Of a stretch of 12,142 bases of DNA, positions 3,106 to 12,142 are shown one piece after another (position 1 is the first letter of the stretch; each line of letters begins with the position of its first letter). Made by a program: the position numbers and the translations under genes. The DNA comes from Candidatus Hydrogenedentota bacterium (GTDB lineage: Bacteria > Hydrogenedentota > Hydrogenedentia > Hydrogenedentales > JAEUWI01), in contig JAUIKJ010000041.1 in NCBI GenBank assembly GCA_030430835.1, forward strand, positions 1 to 12,142, given 5' to 3'. The notes beneath the pieces were generated by a model, which was not told where the DNA came from, did no database searches, and worked only from the letters and a program-made list of their open reading frames with translations.

Positions 3106-3271
3106 ATAGCCTAGTCCTTGCCGGATGCACGTGCGCTTTTGCGTGGTCCTTGCACAATGCAAAGCAGACCTGGTTCCCACCCCTCAGGGTGTAACGAATG
3201 TAGGCGAATTTTCTGGCATCGAAGTTGCATTACCCAGACACCGCAGACGCGGGCAACAAGGAGGACAGAAA

Positions 3272-3727
3272 ATGACAAAGACATTCATCGCCGCTCTATG
3301 CACCGTCGCGGCATTCACCTTTACCGGCTGTCCGACGGTCCCGGGCACCTTTGAAGTGTGGGTCGTGAACACCAGCGGAACGGTCACCGTAACGAACGTC
3401 AAGTTGGTGAACGATGCCGACATGGACGACTTTCGCGAGTTCCCGGCGGATCAGGATCCGGCCACCGCGCGGGTGCTGACCAATGTCCCGCTCGGTGATC
3501 TGGAAGGCAATACGATTACCGTCGAAGTGACGGGCGAAACCGGCGGCCAGGTCTTGGAGGATGTTGACGCGGACATCCGTGTTCCCGATGCGCTGCAGTC
3601 AGGTTCGGTATTGGTCATCGTGCTGGGCGGCGACAACATCGTCAGTTTCAGCGGTGAGTACATTCCGCTTGAGGACGCCAGCAAGGGAGAACTGATGTTC
3701 CGCAACCATTTGCTCGGCGCGCTTTAA
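3272..3727 (+). CDS. Small secreted lipoprotein of unknown function
   Basis: ATG 3272 with AAGGAGGA at 3258-3265. Signal peptide MTKTFIAALCTVAAFTFTG|C with a lipobox-like FTGC. Mature part is Thr/Val/Asp-rich (TVTVTNVKLVNDADMDDF...). Followed by a 12-bp perfect-stem hairpin. Confidence 0.55.
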   Translation: MTKTFIAALCTVAAFTFTGCPTVPGTFEVWVVNTSGTVTVTNVKLVNDADMDDFREFPADQDPATARVLTNVPLGDLEGNTITVEVTGETGGQVLEDVDADIRVPDALQSGSVLVIVLGGDNIVSFSGEYIPLEDASKGELMFRNHLLGAL

Positions 3728-3789
3728 CCCCACTCCCGTCGGGCGTGAGCATTCCCACTCTCCCTCACGTCCCGTCCCACTCCCACCGG

Positions 3790-3821
3790 CCCCGTGCAGC
3801 GTTTCCCGCCGCTGCACGGGG
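3790..3821. terminator. 12-bp perfect-stem hairpin (CCCCGTGCAGCG / CGCTGCACGGGG, loop TTTCCCGC) between convergent genes; probable terminator, possibly bidirectional
   Basis: Perfect inverted repeat 3790-3801 / 3810-3821. Lies between the lipoprotein stop (3727) and the hydrolase stop (3863). A weak T-run follows on the + side only. Confidence 0.45.
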
Positions 3822-3862
3822 CTCGTCGTTTGATTGGACGTGGGAAGTGGATCCGCCGCGGG

Positions 3863-7110: not shown

Positions 7111-7911
7111 CTACTTGAGTCCCAGCACGTCCTGCATGTCGTAGAGGCCGGGCTTGGCCTTGACGGCGAAGCGGGCGGCGACGAGCGCGCCGCGTGCGAA
7201 ATTGTCGCGGTTGTGCGCCTTGTGCGTCAGCTCGATGCGCTCGCCCTGGCCGATGAAGGCGACGGTGTGCTCGCCCACGACATCGCCACCGCGCAGGGTG
7301 TGCATGCCGATCTCGGCGCGCGGGCGCTCGCCGACCATGCCTTCGCGGCCGTGCGCGACGTGCTCATGGTAATCGAGACCAAGACCTTCCGCCGCGCGTT
7401 CGGCGAGGCGCACTGCGGTGCCGCTCGGCGCGTCCTTCTTCAGGTTGTGGTGGATCTCGGTGATCTCGCAGTTGTAGTCGAGCCCGAGGATCTCCGACAC
7501 CTCGCGCGTGAGCTTGAAGAGCAGGTTCACGCCGACGCTCATGTTCGGTGCGAAGACGATGGCGATCTGCTTCGCGAGTTCCGCGAGTTCCGCCTTCTGC
7601 GCGTCGTCCAGCCCCGTGGTGCCGATGACGCAGGGCACGCCCTTCTCCACCGCAAGGCGCACCGTGGGCATGCAGACATTCGCCAGGGTGAAGTCGATGA
7701 TTGCGTCGCTCTTGCCGATCTCCGCGCCGGGGTCGTTGCCGACGACAAGCGTCTGCGGCTTGCCGCTTTCGCTGCCCACGGTGAACTCCATCCCCGCGTT
7801 CTGCGGCGCATCGATGATGCCGCCGATTTCGAGGTCCTCCGCCGCGGCGGTCAGTTCAAGGATGCGTCGTCCCATGCGCCCGAGGGCGCCGGCCATACCG
7901 ATTCGAATCAT
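7111..7911 (-). CDS. dapB: 4-hydroxy-tetrahydrodipicolinate reductase
   Basis: MIRIGMAGALGRMGRR N-terminal NAD(P)-binding motif. Central EIHHNLKKDAPSGTA and C-terminal GEHTVAF...ELTHKAHNR motifs match DapB along the whole length. ATG is the complement of 7909-7911. Confidence 0.93.
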   Translation of the reverse strand: MIRIGMAGALGRMGRRILELTAAAEDLEIGGIIDAPQNAGMEFTVGSESGKPQTLVVGNDPGAEIGKSDAIIDFTLANVCMPTVRLAVEKGVPCVIGTTGLDDAQKAELAELAKQIAIVFAPNMSVGVNLLFKLTREVSEILGLDYNCEITEIHHNLKKDAPSGTAVRLAERAAEGLGLDYHEHVAHGREGMVGERPRAEIGMHTLRGGDVVGEHTVAFIGQGERIELTHKAHNRDNFARGALVAARFAVKAKPGLYDMQDVLGLK

Positions 7912-8061: not shown

Positions 8062-8233
8062 CGTCATTCCCGCGAAGGCGGGAATCCACCAACGTGCAGG
8101 AAGCCTCAAGTCATCGAGTTCGCGTCGTGCGCGACAACATTACCTCCGGGCGTTTGTCCCGCGCTCGACATCCTTCTCTTCGCCCCGCCGTCTTGCGCCG
8201 CGCTGGTGGATTCCCGCCTTCGCGGGAATGACG
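8062..8233. repeat. dRS3-like (ATTCCC-N8-GGGAAT) inverted-repeat-bounded element of about 172 bp, similar to the Neisseria intergenic elements formed by dRS3 pairs
   Basis: CGTCATTCCCGCGAAGGCGGGAATCCACC (8062-8090) is the perfect reverse complement of GGTGGATTCCCGCCTTCGCGGGAATGACG (8205-8233). Each terminal repeat is itself an ATTCCCGC...GCGGGAAT palindrome. Located between dapB and the large dehydrogenase gene. Confidence 0.6.
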
Positions 8234-8304: not shown

Positions 8305-11301
8305 CTACTTCAAGGTCTCCAGATACGCCACCAGGTCGCTCAGGTCCTGCGCGGTCATGGCGGCGGCGAGGCCGGTGGGCATGAGCGACACGGCACTCTC
8401 GACCTTCTGTTTCACGTCGTCGTTCTCGATGCGGAGCACCTGCCCCGCGGAATCCATCAGTTCGAAGCCGTCCTTGTCTTCGCTGCGGATGAAGCCGCTG
8501 AGGAAGCCTTCTTTCGCGCTGTTCACGATGTAGACCTTGTACTCGTGCGAGATGGCGGCGCTCGGGTTCAGGATGGATTCGAGCAGGGCCTCGCGGCCGT
8601 ATTTCTCGCCGATCTTCGAGAGGTCCGGGCCGACTTCCTTGCCTTCGCCATTCACCTGGTGACAGCGGCTGCACTCGGCCTTTTCCGGGCTGAAGAAGAT
8701 CGTGCGGCCCGCTTCCGCATCGCCGCTCATCGCGACGAGATCCGCCATCGGCGGCAGCGCGTTGCCCTCGCTGGTCACTTCGCGCGGCAGCAACTGTTCC
8801 GCCATCATGCGCACATCGTCGAAGGCGCTGGCGTGGGCGAGTTCCTGCACCTCGATGCGCAGGTCCGCCGGGAGCTCGTCCTGTTCGACCAGATTCATCA
8901 GCAACACCGCGCCGGACTTGTTCCCGCCGAGCTGTTGCACGGCGTCGATGCGAACGAGCTTGGAGTAGTCCGCGTTGGTGACGATCTCCTGCAGCACGGG
9001 CGTCGTGTCCATGTGCTGGAAGGCGCTGATGGCGTTCAGGGCGTGCGTGCCAATGAGCGCGTTCTCGTTTGCGAGCAGGGGCTTCAGTGCCGCGACGGAT
9101 TCCTCGGCCTTGCTCTTCATGGCGTTCGGTGCGAGGCGCGCGATGGCGTTGAGCGCGTCGCGCCGCGGGGGGAGTTCGGCGCTCTCGTCAAGCGCCGCCG
9201 TCAGCAGCCGCGGCAGCAGGATGACCTGCCGCGTCTCGGCGGCGAAGCTGGAGGCGGCGGGCTGCAGGGCGGCGTCATCCAGTGCAGCGTCGAGCCAGGC
9301 CTGGAAGGCGTCGTCCTGGATGGTCTTGCGCCAGGCGTCGCCCTCGTCCCGCGCGAGCAGATGCAGGGTGTATTCCGTCACCTCGGCGGGCAGGCCAGTG
9401 TCGAGGAGGGCAACCAGCAGCGCACCGGCCGCTTCCGTACCCTGCACTTCGATTGCCTTGATCGCCTGCTGGCGCAGATCGGCGCTGAGCGCGTTGTTCC
9501 GCGCCGCGGCCTCTGCCACGGGGAAAGCCTCCGCCGGATGCCACTGGATCGCCAGCCCGGCGAGCCGCGCGTCCCAGGTATCGCCCGCTTCGCGCAGGAC
9601 CTGCGTGAAGCAATAGGACTCGATCCCGCGCGCGCCAATGCCGAGGGCTTCGCGGTAGAAGCGGTCTTCGCCGTCGTACTGCAGCGCGAGTTGCGGCACG
9701 ACCTTCGTGCGCAGGCCATTCGCCTCGGGACGGCGCGTCAGTTCGAGGAGGAGTTGGCGGCGCACCTGCGGGTCGGAGTCGTCCTGAAATTCGTAGTCGA
9801 GAAGTTTCGTGGGTTCGTATTCCGCGACAATGCGCATCGCCAGGATACGATCCGAGACTGCATTGCGGTCGGTAAGCGCCTTCAGTACCTCGGCGCGCAT
9901 CGCTGGATCCGTGGCCAGAATCCAGGCACCGCGTGCGCGTGCGGTTGCATTGTCATTGGCGAAGAGCGATTTGATCGTTTTCTCTTGACCGTTTTCGATC
10001 ATCGAACGTGCGATGAGATCGCCGGTGTAGCGCAGGGCATGGTTTGCGGATTGCAGCGCCGCTGCGACATGGCTGTCCTCCGCGCCCATGTGTAGCCTAG
10101 GCACATCGTAGGCCGTTCCCACCGGCGCAAGCCGGTAGATCCGCCCGCGCAGCACATCGCCCATCCGGTGTCCGCCCACGCCTGGGTCATACCAGTCCGA
10201 AATGAACACCGATCCATCCGGCGCGGTACACACGTCGCTCGGTCGGAACCAGGTGTCGTCTTTGCCCTCGACGAGGATCTTCATCTCCGCGCTGAAGCCC
10301 GCGCCGTCGGGGATGGGACGATAGGAGCGGATCACGCGTGGACCGGCATCCGCGTGGATCAGCGTGTTCCGGTAGGCCTCGGGCAACAAGTCGCCCTCGT
10401 AGAAGAGCATGCCCGTCGGTGATCCGAAGCCGGTCTTGAGCATGGTGGGCACGGTGCCGGGGCGGTCGGTGTTCCAGTGGACTTCGTCGAGCTTGCGGTC
10501 GCCCTTGCGGCGTGGCCAGTAGCCGTAGCTGCCGCCTTCCATCACGTAGTTGATCCGCGTCTGCTCGTTGCCGTCGTCGTCGTTGTCGGAGATGAAGATA
10601 TTGCCGAAGGAATCGAGCGCGGGTTCGTAGTTGTTGCGCATGTTCTCGGCGAGCAGCTCGAGGTGTTTGCCCTCGAGGTCCGTGCGCAGCACGGTCGCCG
10701 CGCGGTAGGGCGCGTCCTTCCCCGCGAAGACGCGGTGGCCGGACTTGTCGGTCACGTCGAGACCGCGATCGCCCACGCTGAAATAAAGCCAACCGTCGGG
10801 ACCATAGACCAGCCCGTGGATCGCGTGGTCGTGGTCCACCCCGCCGAAGCCGGTGAGGATGACCTTCTTCTCGTCGGCCACGCCATCGCCATCGGTATCG
10901 CGCAGATAGAAAAGATCCGGCGACTGCGCGACGTAGACGCGATCCCCCAGCACCGCGATACCCAGCGGCGCCTGCAGGCTGGGATCCTGATAGAAGGTCC
11001 GGGCGTCATCCGCCTTGCCGTCGCCGTCTGTGTCTTCCAGCACGACGATGCGGTCGCCCTCGGGGCGGGCCATGTCCTGATTGAAGAGCCGGTAGTTCGC
11101 CGCTTCCGCCACCCAGACCCGGCCCTCGGCGTCCACGTCGATACAGGTGGGGTTCACCAGCATCGGCTCCGCGGCGAAGAGCGTCAGCTCGAGGCCCTCG
11201 GCCACGCTGAGCGACGCGAGGGATTCCTCGGCGGATTGCTGCGCGGCAGCGGGCAGCGCAAGCAGCAGCAGTGCAAGACAGGCGAGACGGTTCCTGGACA
11301 T
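8305..11301 (-). CDS. Exported PVC-type membrane-bound dehydrogenase domain protein: N-terminal glucose/sorbosone-dehydrogenase-like beta-propeller, central HEAT/ARM repeats, C-terminal cytochrome c domain
   Basis: 998-aa ORF. ATG is the complement of 11299-11301, with GGGAG 8 nt upstream. Signal peptide MSRNRLACLALLLLALPAAAQQ. N-terminal propeller-like region with repeated DGDG/DTDGDGxAD motifs. Ala/Leu-rich helical repeat middle. CSRCH haem-binding motif near the C-terminus (EKAECSRCHQVNGEGKEVGPDLSKIG). Stop TAG is the complement of 8305-8307. Confidence 0.85.
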   Translation of the reverse strand: MSRNRLACLALLLLALPAAAQQSAEESLASLSVAEGLELTLFAAEPMLVNPTCIDVDAEGRVWVAEAANYRLFNQDMARPEGDRIVVLEDTDGDGKADDARTFYQDPSLQAPLGIAVLGDRVYVAQSPDLFYLRDTDGDGVADEKKVILTGFGGVDHDHAIHGLVYGPDGWLYFSVGDRGLDVTDKSGHRVFAGKDAPYRAATVLRTDLEGKHLELLAENMRNNYEPALDSFGNIFISDNDDDGNEQTRINYVMEGGSYGYWPRRKGDRKLDEVHWNTDRPGTVPTMLKTGFGSPTGMLFYEGDLLPEAYRNTLIHADAGPRVIRSYRPIPDGAGFSAEMKILVEGKDDTWFRPSDVCTAPDGSVFISDWYDPGVGGHRMGDVLRGRIYRLAPVGTAYDVPRLHMGAEDSHVAAALQSANHALRYTGDLIARSMIENGQEKTIKSLFANDNATARARGAWILATDPAMRAEVLKALTDRNAVSDRILAMRIVAEYEPTKLLDYEFQDDSDPQVRRQLLLELTRRPEANGLRTKVVPQLALQYDGEDRFYREALGIGARGIESYCFTQVLREAGDTWDARLAGLAIQWHPAEAFPVAEAAARNNALSADLRQQAIKAIEVQGTEAAGALLVALLDTGLPAEVTEYTLHLLARDEGDAWRKTIQDDAFQAWLDAALDDAALQPAASSFAAETRQVILLPRLLTAALDESAELPPRRDALNAIARLAPNAMKSKAEESVAALKPLLANENALIGTHALNAISAFQHMDTTPVLQEIVTNADYSKLVRIDAVQQLGGNKSGAVLLMNLVEQDELPADLRIEVQELAHASAFDDVRMMAEQLLPREVTSEGNALPPMADLVAMSGDAEAGRTIFFSPEKAECSRCHQVNGEGKEVGPDLSKIGEKYGREALLESILNPSAAISHEYKVYIVNSAKEGFLSGFIRSEDKDGFELMDSAGQVLRIENDDVKQKVESAVSLMPTGLAAAMTAQDLSDLVAYLETLK

Positions 11302-11416
11302 GGGCTTCTCCCCGGGATCGGCAATGAAAGCGGCATTCTAGCCCCGCAGAGAAGATTCGGCAAACCGCCCGCGCGGGCCCGTGCGGTGAAGGGCAGGTGC
11401 CGCGAGGCTGGGTGAT

Positions 11417-11485
11417 CTCCCCTGTGTCACCTCGACCGAAGGGAGAGGTCTTAGATTTCTCCCTTCGGTCGAAATGACACGGAAC
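11417..11485. repeat. Hairpin repeat copy 1: 15-bp perfect stem TCGACCGAAGGGAGA / TCTCCCTTCGGTCGA with an 11-nt loop, extended by GTGTCAC...GACAC pairing
   Basis: Stem arms at 11432-11446 and 11458-11472. Flanks GTGTCA / TGACAC extend the pairing. Confidence 0.6.
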
Positions 11486-11495
11486 ACCCCTGCAC

Positions 11496-11529
11496 CCTCG
11501 TCATTCCCACCTGCGCGGGAATGACGAGG
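11496..11529. repeat. dRS3-like palindrome CCTCGTCATTCCC-ACCTGCGC-GGGAATGACGAGG
   Basis: 13-bp perfect arms around an 8-nt centre. Matches the ATTCCC-N8-GGGAAT pattern. Confidence 0.6.
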
Positions 11530-11540
11530 CTGAGTAATCG

Positions 11541-11644
11541 CTCCTGTGTCACCTCGACCGTAGGGAGAGGTCTTGTGTTCCCATGTCACCGCGTCTTTAG
11601 CGAGAGGTCTTGGATTTCTCCCTACGGTCGAAATGACACGGAAC
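11541..11644. repeat. Hairpin repeat copy 2, with a 37-bp internal insertion that duplicates GAGAGGTCTT, and a compensatory stem change
   Basis: Arms TCGACCGTAGGGAGA (11555-11569) and TCTCCCTACGGTCGA (11617-11631). Relative to copy 1, the A:T pair at one stem position is T:A on both arms, so pairing is preserved. Confidence 0.6.
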
Positions 11645-11676
11645 GGCGGAAACGACATGGTACGCCCTCGCACCCC

Positions 11677-11840
11677 CGTCATTCCCGCGGAGGCGGGAAT
11701 CCAGCGATCGTGGAGTACACGCGTATGCATGCGATGCGCGCCTTGGTGCGGTGATACGCGGTGACGTTGGTTGCGCCGGATGGCGCAGCGTGGTTGTTTG
11801 GCGCTTCGCGCACTGGATTCCCGCCTCCGCGGGAATGACG
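11677..11840. repeat. Second dRS3-like inverted-repeat-bounded element (28-bp perfect terminal inverted repeats, spacer of about 108 bp)
   Basis: CGTCATTCCCGCGGAGGCGGGAATCCAG (11677-11704) is the exact reverse complement of CTGGATTCCCGCCTCCGCGGGAATGACG (11813-11840). The interior is unrelated to the interior of the 8062-8233 element. Confidence 0.6.
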
Positions 11841-11867
11841 AGGCTGCGCTCCGTGCCGCATTGATCA

Positions 11868-11903
11868 AGAAAAAGGCGGCTACGGCATTTGCCGCAGCCG
11901 CCT
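11868..11903 (-). terminator. Rho-independent terminator of the minus-strand gene that ends at 11923
   Basis: On the minus strand: AGGCGGCTGCGGC-AAA-TGCCGTAGCCGCCT hairpin (about 13 bp, one G-U/mismatch) followed by TTTTTCTT. This is the plus-strand AAGAAAAAGGCGGCTACGGCATTTGCCGCAGCCGCCT. Confidence 0.6.
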
Positions 11904-11922
11904 ATGCGCTCTTACGTCTTCG

Positions 11923-12142
11923 CTACTGCAGGCCGGGACAGTAACCATCCTCGGTGGCATCCAGCGGGCAGTAGTAGTAGCCGCCGCTGTTGAAGAACTG
12001 GATGAGGCGGAGCAGTTCGCTCAGGCTGATTTCCCAGTCCTGCGGGTTGTAGTCGCTGGTGTGGGGTGTGCAGCCGGTGTCGGGGTCGTTCGGGTTGTAG
12101 CCGTCCTCGGTGCCGAACTCGCAGCCGAAGCCATCCGAGTTG
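11923..12142 (-). CDS. 3' end (C-terminal 73 codons) of a Cys-rich secreted protein; gene continues beyond the window
   Basis: Open minus-strand frame from the window edge to TAG (complement of 11923-11925): ...NSDGFGCEFGTEDGYNPNDPDTGCTPHTSDYNPQDWEISLSELLRLIQFFNSGGYYYCPLDATEDGYCPGLQ*. Consistent high-GC third positions. A strong terminator lies immediately downstream. Not in the ORF track because it is truncated by the window edge. Confidence 0.55.
   Translation of the reverse strand, partial: NSDGFGCEFGTEDGYNPNDPDTGCTPHTSDYNPQDWEISLSELLRLIQFFNSGGYYYCPLDATEDGYCPGLQ

Follow-up and report, generated by a model that had tools for sequence, protein, structure and literature searches.

A composite array of CGTC- and TGTC-tagged hairpin repeats in an uncultured Hydrogenedentota bacterium and its probable place in the NTS/Ssn-related motif system

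The locus and the anatomy of the array

The window, by which we mean the whole 12,142-bp contig analyzed here (64% G+C, from an uncultured Candidatus Hydrogenedentota bacterium), contains at 11417-11848 an array of hairpin-forming repeats that probably belongs to the already described system of CGTC/TGTC-tagged repetitive extragenic palindromes (REPs), which is that of the Neisseria Transformation Sequence (NTS) and the Ssn-related motifs (SRMs), and that is probably a DNA-level element and not a new structured RNA. The array is adjacent to a minus-strand gene (8305-11301) coding for a 998-aa protein with DUF7133, GSDH-like, HEAT and cytochrome c features, the best named homologues of which occur in metagenome-assembled genomes (MAGs) of Hydrogenedentota at ~53% identity, and NTS-containing clusters are present on both sides of this gene. 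Upstream of the array is the intrinsic terminator of the preceding gene (minus strand, 11903-11874, 13 pairs with a T-run), the stop codon of which is at 11923-11925. The location of the array between a strong terminator and the start of the large gene at 11301, as described in an earlier reading of this DNA made from its letters (the sequence-only reading), is thus confirmed. The C-terminal end of the preceding gene (minus strand, 11926-12142, …DYNPQDWEISLSELLRLIQFFNSGGYYYCPLDATEDGYCPGLQ*) runs off the contig. Between the array and the 998-aa gene there is a promoter-like site on the minus strand (TTGCCG-17-TAGAAT, 11363-11335), which is the only sigma-70-like site in 11250-12000 and is conserved at the orthologous locus of a close relative (L123).

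A second NTS dimer (8062-8233) is located between the 3' end of the 998-aa gene and an open reading frame (ORF) at 7111-7911 that is probably dapB, given that its length and position are as in L123. The L123 locus, with 82% amino acid identity, contains neither the array nor the NTS dimer, and its similarity to the window ends at ~11380, just before the array. The equivalent spacer of L123 (3420-3580, between a dehydrogenase-like gene and dapB) contains a GTAG-tagged REP dimer composed of GTAGCCCCGGGCGTGAGCCCGGGGTAA and its inverse. This indicates that the YGTC and GTAG systems are distinct and that equivalent intergenic niches in close relatives are colonised by different repeat systems. When the whole window was scanned against Rfam with E values up to 1, only chance matches to microRNA hairpins were obtained, at 24-26 bits relative to gathering thresholds of 72-100. 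A G+C-rich perfect hairpin at 3783-3828 on the minus strand, with a sub-threshold match to Rfam 'F6' (27 bits relative to a gathering threshold of 46), is probably just a terminator-like stem.

The array itself is a locally duplicated and partly decayed assembly of two classes of YGTC-tagged extragenic hairpin repeat. The sequence-only reading had described it as a tandem composite of a hairpin and a dRS3 unit present twice, and this is borne out, as the two composite copies can be aligned end to end over ~122 nt plus insertions, with a tandem period of ~122 nt. The hairpins, the palindrome and the dRS3 pair that it had listed are all present at the coordinates given there, far above chance as judged by folding relative to shuffled sequences and by motif counts. 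Specifically, the hairpin at 11417-11485 has a folding energy of -47.1 kcal/mol as RNA (z -8.8, with 0 of 200 shuffles as good) and of -24.5 kcal/mol as DNA (z -7.4), and the hairpin at 11541-11644 has an energy of -53 kcal/mol as RNA (z -6.8). The stem of 15 bp that had been reported corresponds to the Watson-Crick run without interruption, TCGACCGNAGGGAGA / TCTCCCTN'CGGTCGA, while the full hairpin arms extend over 28 nt with a complementarity of 86-91%.

The 69-nt hairpin of copy 1 is dimeric: two TGTC-tagged arms of 26 nt, each with a stem-loop of its own, face each other in inverted orientation. The left half is arm L1 (11425-11450, plus strand, TGTC-ACCTC-GA-CC-GAA-GG-GA-GAGGT-C, which we call the CC/GG subtype), and the right half is arm R1 (11454-11479, minus strand, TGTC-ATTTC-GA-CC-GAA-GG-GA-GAAAT-C, the TT/AA subtype). 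The arm-level fold of L1 is its predicted minimum-energy structure, although it is weak. Because each arm keeps its internal pairing, every dimer of the window has two C.A mismatches and two G.T wobbles in its long hairpin. Copy 2 contains the corresponding arms L2 (11547-11572, plus strand, CC/GG subtype) and R2 (11613-11638, minus strand, TT/AA subtype), both with the loop GTA. The 37-bp insertion reported for the second hairpin is also present, and its bulk is a decayed additional copy of the left arm (11584-11609, plus strand, TGTCACCGCGTCTTTAGCGAGAGGTC), such that left-arm copies start at 11547 and at 11584 with a spacing of 37. A second insertion, of 19 nt, is a decayed partial duplicate of the end of the right arm (11644-11663, plus strand, CGGCGGAAACGACATGGTAC), within a direct repeat of 75% identity over 57 nt. 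When copy 1 is compared with copy 2, the arms differ at 2 of 54 positions, both of which are apex bases, relative to 8 of 34 positions in the linkers (Fisher p = 0.012). Conservation of the arms in sequence is as expected for protein recognition, in which both sequence and shape are needed (PMC11893778).

Before the first TGTC dimer, at 11403-11410, is an orphan CGAGGCTG that corresponds to the 3' flank of the other NTS units but lacks a core, and that may be what is left of a third NTS unit after erosion. An unannotated 176-aa ORF on the minus strand (11338-11868), with no Pfam match, crosses the repeat array and is almost certainly spurious.

NTS units, TGTC arms and their described relatives

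The NTS of Neisseria is a 28-nt hairpin-forming sequence that contains dRS3. It is bound and cut by SsnA, a 94-aa single-domain GIY-YIG nuclease, only as single-stranded DNA (ssDNA) and not as RNA or double-stranded DNA, and both the GTC that precedes the palindrome and the C that directly follows it are critical (PMC11893778). Genes homologous to that of SsnA are found across bacteria, flanked by Ssn-related motifs (PMC11893778, Chenal et al. 2025). The first class of unit in the window has the formula CGTC + ATTCCCGC-GNAG-GCGGGAAT + CCA and likewise contains dRS3. The dRS3 core ATTCCC-N8-GGGAAT has five exact matches in the window (8066, 8210, 11503, 11681 and 11817) relative to 0.02 expected, those at 8066 and 8210 being additional to the ones listed in the earlier note. 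The extended motif GGGAATGACGAGGCTG, which that note had given as common to the dRS3 units, is exact at 11517 and 11831 and is found on the other strand at 11493 and 11671 with 1-2 mismatches. To label these units dRS3 is correct in substance, although the host is not a Neisseria.

Four units, at 8062 (plus), 8206 (minus), 11677 (plus) and 11813 (minus), read with their flanks as CGTCATTCCCGCG[A/G]AGGCGGGAATCCA[C/G], and each is exactly one mismatch from the 28-nt NTS consensus CGTCATTCCCGCGMAVGCGGGAATCYRG, where no more than one mismatch is the published criterion (PMC11893778). Two of these form an inverted pair in the array, with CGTCATTCCCGCGGAGGCGGGAATCCAG at 11677-11704 on the plus strand and its inverted partner, with the same GGAG loop, at 11813-11840 on the minus strand (36-nt arms, 94% complementary). 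They enclose a 108-nt spacer (11705-11812) that occupies the 'RS element' position of a NIME-like unit. The other two (8062-8089, plus, and 8206-8233, minus) form the second inverted dimer, across the 998-aa gene from the array, with 116 nt between the 28-nt units and 124 nt between the 20-nt dRS3 cores, and the 108- and 116-nt spacers of the two pairs are unrelated to each other. As ssDNA, an NTS unit is predicted to form an 8-bp stem with a 4-nt loop (-8.9 kcal/mol), leaving the tag and the CCA tail unpaired. The published degenerate SRM pattern, HGTCWYN(0-2)YYVSBRHN(0-5)WNVSBRGN(0-2)RNCYNB, which was hand-built from 29 genomes, matches both units of the 8062/8206 dimer but neither the GGAG-loop units at 11677 and 11813 nor any TGTC arm. 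The palindrome at 11499-11526, CGTCATTCCCACCTGCGCGGGAATGACG, has a single dRS3 core, which is tagged with CGTC on either strand, and folds as DNA at -14.8 kcal/mol. With tags on both sides and a G instead of a C after the core, it fails the 28-nt NTS criterion, and we infer that it is a collapsed dimer from which the spacer was deleted between directly repeated halves of two cores. A search of phage and plasmid collections matched the NTS part of the array in Photobacterium, Azospirillum, Novosphingobium, N. gonorrhoeae and one 'Microcystis phage' record, with similar NTS pairs in the first three genera and in the phage record, and gave no match to the TGTC dimer.

The units of the window share with the NTS/SsnA system (PMC11893778) the orientation of the CGTC tag, the 8-bp stem, the 4-nt loop and the C after the palindrome, as well as the arrangement in inverted pairs around unrelated spacers of 100-120 nt and an NTS-gene-NTS layout. 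What the TGTC arms have in common with it is a GTC tag, a stem that begins with an A-T pair, a C on the 3' side and a position next to GIY-YIG genes of ~100 aa. However, the host is a bacterium of high G+C content outside Neisseria, no ssn gene is present on the contig, the two classes are fused into one tandem composite in the window, and the TGTC arms differ by a stem interrupted by tandem G.A and by a variable distal hairpin.

A second close relative is the set of CGTC-1 to CGTC-4 REPs (Di Nocera, De Gregorio & Rocco 2013, PMC3733652), which have a CGTC or TGTC tag, an 8-9-bp stem starting with AT, a 4-5-nt loop and a CCA tail, which occur mostly as inverted dimers, and for which no associated transposase is described. 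The NTS units of the window fit CGTC-1 in tag, in the 8-bp stem starting with AT, in loop and in CCA tail, and the repeats of Neisseria mosaic regions were assigned to CGTC-1 in that study (PMC3733652). Shared features extend to stems of 8-9 positions beginning with A-T, the short 3' tail (CCA in the NTS units of the window), the same- or mixed-type inverted dimers with spacers from 1-2 nt to 100 nt, and the wide phylogenetic spread, which includes Bacteroidetes and Chlorobi. The TGTC arm was compared with these REPs by description and may belong to one of CGTC-2 to CGTC-4 or to none of them. A difference is that no associated enzyme was found in PMC3733652, a gap that is filled by the GIY-YIG linkage found here and in Chenal et al. 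2025.

The NIMEs of Neisseria, with their dRS3-RS-dRS3 layout (Bentley et al. 2007, PMC1797815), have in common with the window the 20-bp ATTCCC-N8-GGGAAT inverted repeats around variable spacers of 50-150 bp, and their occurrence as intergenic arrays that are clustered with other repeat types beside particular genes. They were called Neisseria-specific, whereas the window array is small, with three dRS3 cores, and is found in an unrelated genome of high G+C content. REPINs and BIMEs with their associated RAYT are likewise short tagged palindromes in inverted doublets that form a long hairpin, occur in intergenic clusters, flank a single-copy nuclease-type gene and involve recognition of ssDNA hairpins, but their tag is GTAG and not YGTC, and their enzyme is an HUH/Y1 transposase and not a GIY-YIG nuclease.

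The TGTC arm family, its covariation and its link to GIY-YIG genes

We scanned the genomes of 185,579 species with the arm query GTCAYYTCGACCGNAGGGAGA and obtained at least 120 loci. The matches listed include Bacteroidota, Desulfobacterota, Ignavibacteria, Riflebacteria, Nitrospirales, Anaerolineae, Gammaproteobacteria (including Luteimonas) and one Bathyarchaeota MAG. Exact identity to the window arms over 21-25 nt is observed in more than 120 loci from many phyla, relative to ~4 chance matches for the whole collection by our own estimate. The arm consensus, (T/C)GTC-A-YY-TC-GA-CC-GNA-GG-GA-GA-RR-T-C, describes a 26-nt arm built from a 5-bp outer stem, conserved GA...GA dinucleotides that plausibly form tandem G.A pairs, and a variable distal mini-hairpin, and the class as a whole can be written as TGTC + A-NNN-C / tandem G.A / short variable distal hairpin / G-NNN-T + C. 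Besides singletons (50 of 149), there are mixed-type dimers and direct tandem arrays of arms, and both repeat classes co-occur on a metagenome contig of 64% G+C (L135) that includes a three-arm cluster like that of the window.

Several of the matched loci have features of their own. At positions 1-260 of L037, and in L128, L130, L134, L136 and L137 (low G+C, Bacteroidota-like), arms of one orientation are arranged in direct tandem with periods of ~72-210 nt and near-identical AT-rich spacers. These arrays resemble CRISPR arrays but are not, and for L037, where the arm spacing is ~72 nt, a CRISPR array was rejected on the ground that the 'spacers' are near-identical to each other. The contig of L033, which has an arm dimer at 3207-3290, was assigned to a Bathyarchaeota (archaeal) MAG; either the contig was mis-binned or the repeat occurs in both domains. 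Three contigs of one MAG (L010, L041 and L092) carry identical mixed-type dimers at or near contig ends, flanking an acetyl-CoA synthetase gene, and evidently arm repeats break short-read assemblies. The arms at both ends of L041 were also considered as the boundaries of an insertion sequence (IS), which was rejected given that the enclosed ORF is the acetyl-CoA synthetase and that contigs break at the repeats.

The sequence-only reading had placed covariation in the stem of the hairpin. Compensatory substitution is indeed found, but it lies within the arms and is not evidence for the long 69-nt stem. In a count of 150 arms for which the search pattern had left the 3' half (RR) of the outer stem free, RR pairs with YY in 145, and among the arms that do not have TT at the YY position, 14 of 17 are exactly compensated (TC/GA in 13 and CC/GG in 1). 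A further set of 115 units from the same loci, which were not selected by the search pattern and many of which are partner arms with another inner sequence such as TGTCATTTCGAGCAAAGCGAGAAATC or TGTCACCCCGAAGGAGCGCAGCGACTGAGGGGTC, exhibits a complementary outer triplet in 98 units, relative to a mean of 44 and a maximum of 57 in shuffles. Non-TTT variants in this set are compensated in 33 of 43 cases, with 11 pair types. The same is true for the window, where the left arms read A-CC-TC...GA-GG-T and the right arms A-TT-TC...GA-AA-T, each being internally compensated, so that the real covariation of the window lies inside each arm (CC..GG relative to TT..AA). Because outer-stem variants are compensated within arms, the conserved structural unit is the 26-nt arm and not the 69-nt hairpin.

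The arms are also linked to small nuclease genes. Within the arm-selected loci, three genes coding for ~100-aa GIY-YIG proteins (PF01541) were found, and each of these adjoins arms. In Flavobacterium panacis (L112) arm units are 34 and 39 nt from the two ends of the gene, in Mucilaginibacter lappiensis (L117) an arm is 50 nt from the gene, and in the third case (L138) the distance is 41 nt. Reciprocally, we used the arm-linked GIY-YIG proteins in a profile search and analyzed the contigs of five homologues for which protein similarity was the only criterion of choice. In four of them (P0139, P0174, P0221 and P0129) YGTC-tagged units of the arm family are found at a distance of 10-45 nt from the gene, and in three of these four the units are on both sides. 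Specifically, in Flavobacterium resistens (L147) the GIY-YIG gene is flanked by a 25-nt unit that equals the right arm of the window minus the first base of the tag, and in L142 (1012-1479, also seen in L143-L145) a tandem array with a period of ~110 nt lies directly upstream of a 98-aa GIY-YIG gene, in which two arm types alternate in opposite orientation over ~4.5 repeats. The fifth homologue, P0142, has no YGTC units nearby in its contigs (L148-L151); it adjoins an MmeI-type restriction-modification gene, with a terminase gene near in one of its contigs. Not every member of the small GIY-YIG family is therefore flanked by repeats. NCBIfam searches with the GIY-YIG proteins gave only sub-threshold matches to group I intron endonucleases, and the PDB, searched by sequence, yielded a UPF0213 GIY-YIG protein and nothing else. 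Because the repeat-gene-repeat layout around small GIY-YIG genes is as described by Chenal et al., the TGTC arm can be regarded as a sister class of the NTS.

The feature that had led to the proposal of a selected long hairpin is an A:T to T:A double change between the two copies, and this change is present, with A11439/T11465 in copy 1 replaced by T11561/A11624 in copy 2. The changed position is, however, the apex of the GNA loop of each arm, which is the free position of the arm family (A in 75, C in 42, T in 17 and G in 16 of the 150 arms). An inverted partner within 170 nt is present for 99 of 149 arms. In 56 of these the partner differs in the inner stem-loop, such that the middle of a long hairpin would not pair, while 43 have a same-type partner; these counts are arm-based, and most same-type dimers are counted from both arms. 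For distinct dimers, counted in a later and larger set of loci with both arms of exact CCGNAGG type (n = 17), the loop bases of the partners agree in 13 and disagree in 4, relative to 6.8 +/- 2.0 agreements in shuffles, with 12 of 5000 shuffles reaching 13. Three dimers elsewhere combine the CC/GG and TT/AA subtypes as in the window, and of these L131 (T/A) and L135 (A/T) disagree whereas L133 agrees. Agreement of loop bases between dimer partners is thus a genuine tendency but not an absolute rule. For the concordant A-to-T change in copy 2, the best reading is that the two arms evolved in concert at an unconstrained loop position, which could occur by hairpin-templated repair or conversion, with one arm templating the other, or by replacement with a dimer variant.

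Competing explanations and significance

Because the double change is at a free loop apex, the step from this change to selection on the long hairpin is weak, and with 4 of 17 same-type dimers discordant and different-type partners outnumbering same-type ones, the argument made in the sequence-only reading does not carry. That the long dimer-level hairpin is itself selected, either as RNA, within a leader or a small RNA, or as cruciform DNA, with the double change being truly compensatory, is unlikely. It would account for the great stability of the dimer hairpins and for the excess of matching loop bases in same-type partners, and by our inference independent loop drift at the linker rate would be expected to give two changes to the same base only ~2% of the time. 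Yet two of the three dimers of the window's own subtype (L131 and L135) are among the discordant ones, the window dimers keep within-arm pairing at the cost of the C.A mismatches and G.T wobbles in the long stem, and the arms are conserved in sequence and not in pairing alone. The earlier suggestion that the array is transcribed as a 5' leader or as small RNAs is likewise not favored. With the terminator upstream and the conserved promoter-like site between the array and the gene, the array is located upstream of the likely promoter and downstream of the terminator, so that a role as 5' leader is unlikely; in addition there is no Rfam match, and SsnA, which is the one protein partner of this repeat superfamily to have been characterised, is active on ssDNA only and inactive on RNA and double-stranded DNA (PMC11893778). 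The hairpins were also considered as intrinsic terminators, which was dropped given that no T-run follows them, and attC sites and dif-like Xer sites were considered from the sequence and dropped.

Another explanation is that the hairpins are miniature inverted-repeat transposable elements (MITEs) of a Correia-like or REPIN-like kind that are mobilised by a DDE or RAYT (IS200-like Y1) transposase, with the arms as terminal inverted repeats. The inverted 28-nt arms, the dispersal of copies over many genomes, the contigs that break at the repeats (L003, L004, L010 and L041), the presence or absence of the repeats between orthologous loci, and the fact that REPINs are likewise hairpin-forming doublets of REPs are all congruent with it. 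Nevertheless we regard it as quite unlikely. No transposase was noticed between or next to arms in ~135 loci, where only GIY-YIG genes were searched for systematically, and the gene that does adjoin arms is a GIY-YIG nuclease. Singletons, mixed-type dimers and direct tandem arrays do not fit a MITE, no target-site duplication is evident around 11425-11479, and no parent IS was found. A REPIN or RAYT-associated REP is further disfavored by the CGTC/TGTC tags, and CGTC REPs have no associated transposase (Di Nocera 2013, PMC3733652). As for Correia elements, the MITEs of Neisseria, the resemblance is that they too are small and intergenic, are built on inverted repeats and can be found close to promoters. 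A Correia element measures 100-155 bp, is bounded by terminal repeats of its own, duplicates a TA target and contains IHF and promoter features; nothing of this kind was seen in the window array, which has no sequence similarity to these elements.

Finally, the array could be inert debris of slippage and duplication that has no sequence-specific partner and resembles NTS units and arms by convergence of GC-rich palindromes, which would suit the decayed partial copies at 11584-11609 and 11644-11663 and the tandem period of ~122 nt. This is highly improbable, being effectively refuted by the cross-genome identity of 21-25 nt in loci of so many phyla, where only ~4 matches are estimated by chance. 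It is also opposed by the NTS units that are within one mismatch of the 28-nt consensus, by the conservation of the arms relative to the diverged linkers and by the GIY-YIG linkage.

Assignment of the array to the CGTC/TGTC-tagged REP and NTS/SRM system accommodates these observations as follows. Each unit of ~26-28 nt forms its own stem-loop and is usually paired with an inverted unit, tags outward; where the spacer is only ~3 nt, as here, the inverted pair looks like a single long hairpin. By analogy with the Neisseria system, units may be recognised when the DNA is single-stranded, as in replication, DNA uptake or repair, by a small single-domain Ssn-family GIY-YIG nuclease that would bind the hairpin together with the GTC on its 5' side and the C on its 3' side and would nick a few nucleotides upstream. 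In this way the repeats may modulate ssDNA recombination and genome dynamics around the flanked gene, at the level of DNA and not of RNA. The family identity of both unit types, the covariation at arm level, the linkage of arms to GIY-YIG genes elsewhere, the conservation of the arms above that of the linkers and the absence of the array from the orthologous locus are established by our analysis. That the host encodes a cognate Ssn of cd10448 type which cuts these units with biological consequence is suggested by analogy.

A number of observations weigh against this assignment. No GIY-YIG ORF is present on the contig, so nuclease activity in the host is putative, and the TGTC arm is a putative Ssn substrate by virtue of its linkage to GIY-YIG genes. 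The energies of single arms are weak (-2.6 and -4.2 kcal/mol) and no better than those of shuffles, such that the support for the arm fold is comparative and not thermodynamic, whereas the long dimer hairpin at -24.5 kcal/mol is very stable and would dominate in naked ssDNA. Class 2 arms also fail the published SRM search pattern, and the concordance of loop bases in 13 of 17 dimers leaves room for some constraint at the dimer level.

A bolder version, which we hold only tentatively and consider doubtful, is that the TGTC arm is a distinct pan-phylum class of Ssn-related motif, the GIY-YIG nuclease of which mobilises or homogenises CGTC-type REPs. Its build would be modular: the outer stem (A-NNN-C / G-NNN-T) would be constant, tandem G.A would form a platform, and the distal hairpin would be hypervariable, with a length of 5 to ~30 nt. 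If true, this would account for the frequent agreement of loop bases between dimer partners, and the window would show two such classes co-amplified as one composite.

With the assignment to the NTS/SRM system, a tempting reading as structured RNA is replaced by a documented repeat system that operates on DNA. NTS units nearly identical to the Neisseria consensus occur in an uncultured bacterium of high G+C content, where they bracket a gene, and they can be fused with a TGTC-tagged class that is missed by the published SRM pattern. The residual novelty lies in this modular TGTC class outside the SRM patterns and in the concordance of loop bases between dimer partners. The arm family is relevant for the cataloguing of Ssn targets, for the annotation of metagenomes and for scans for structured RNA, as repeats of this superfamily break assemblies and yield spurious ORFs such as the 176-aa ORF of the window. 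The modest excess of matching loop bases hints at how the dimers of this family are made or homogenised.

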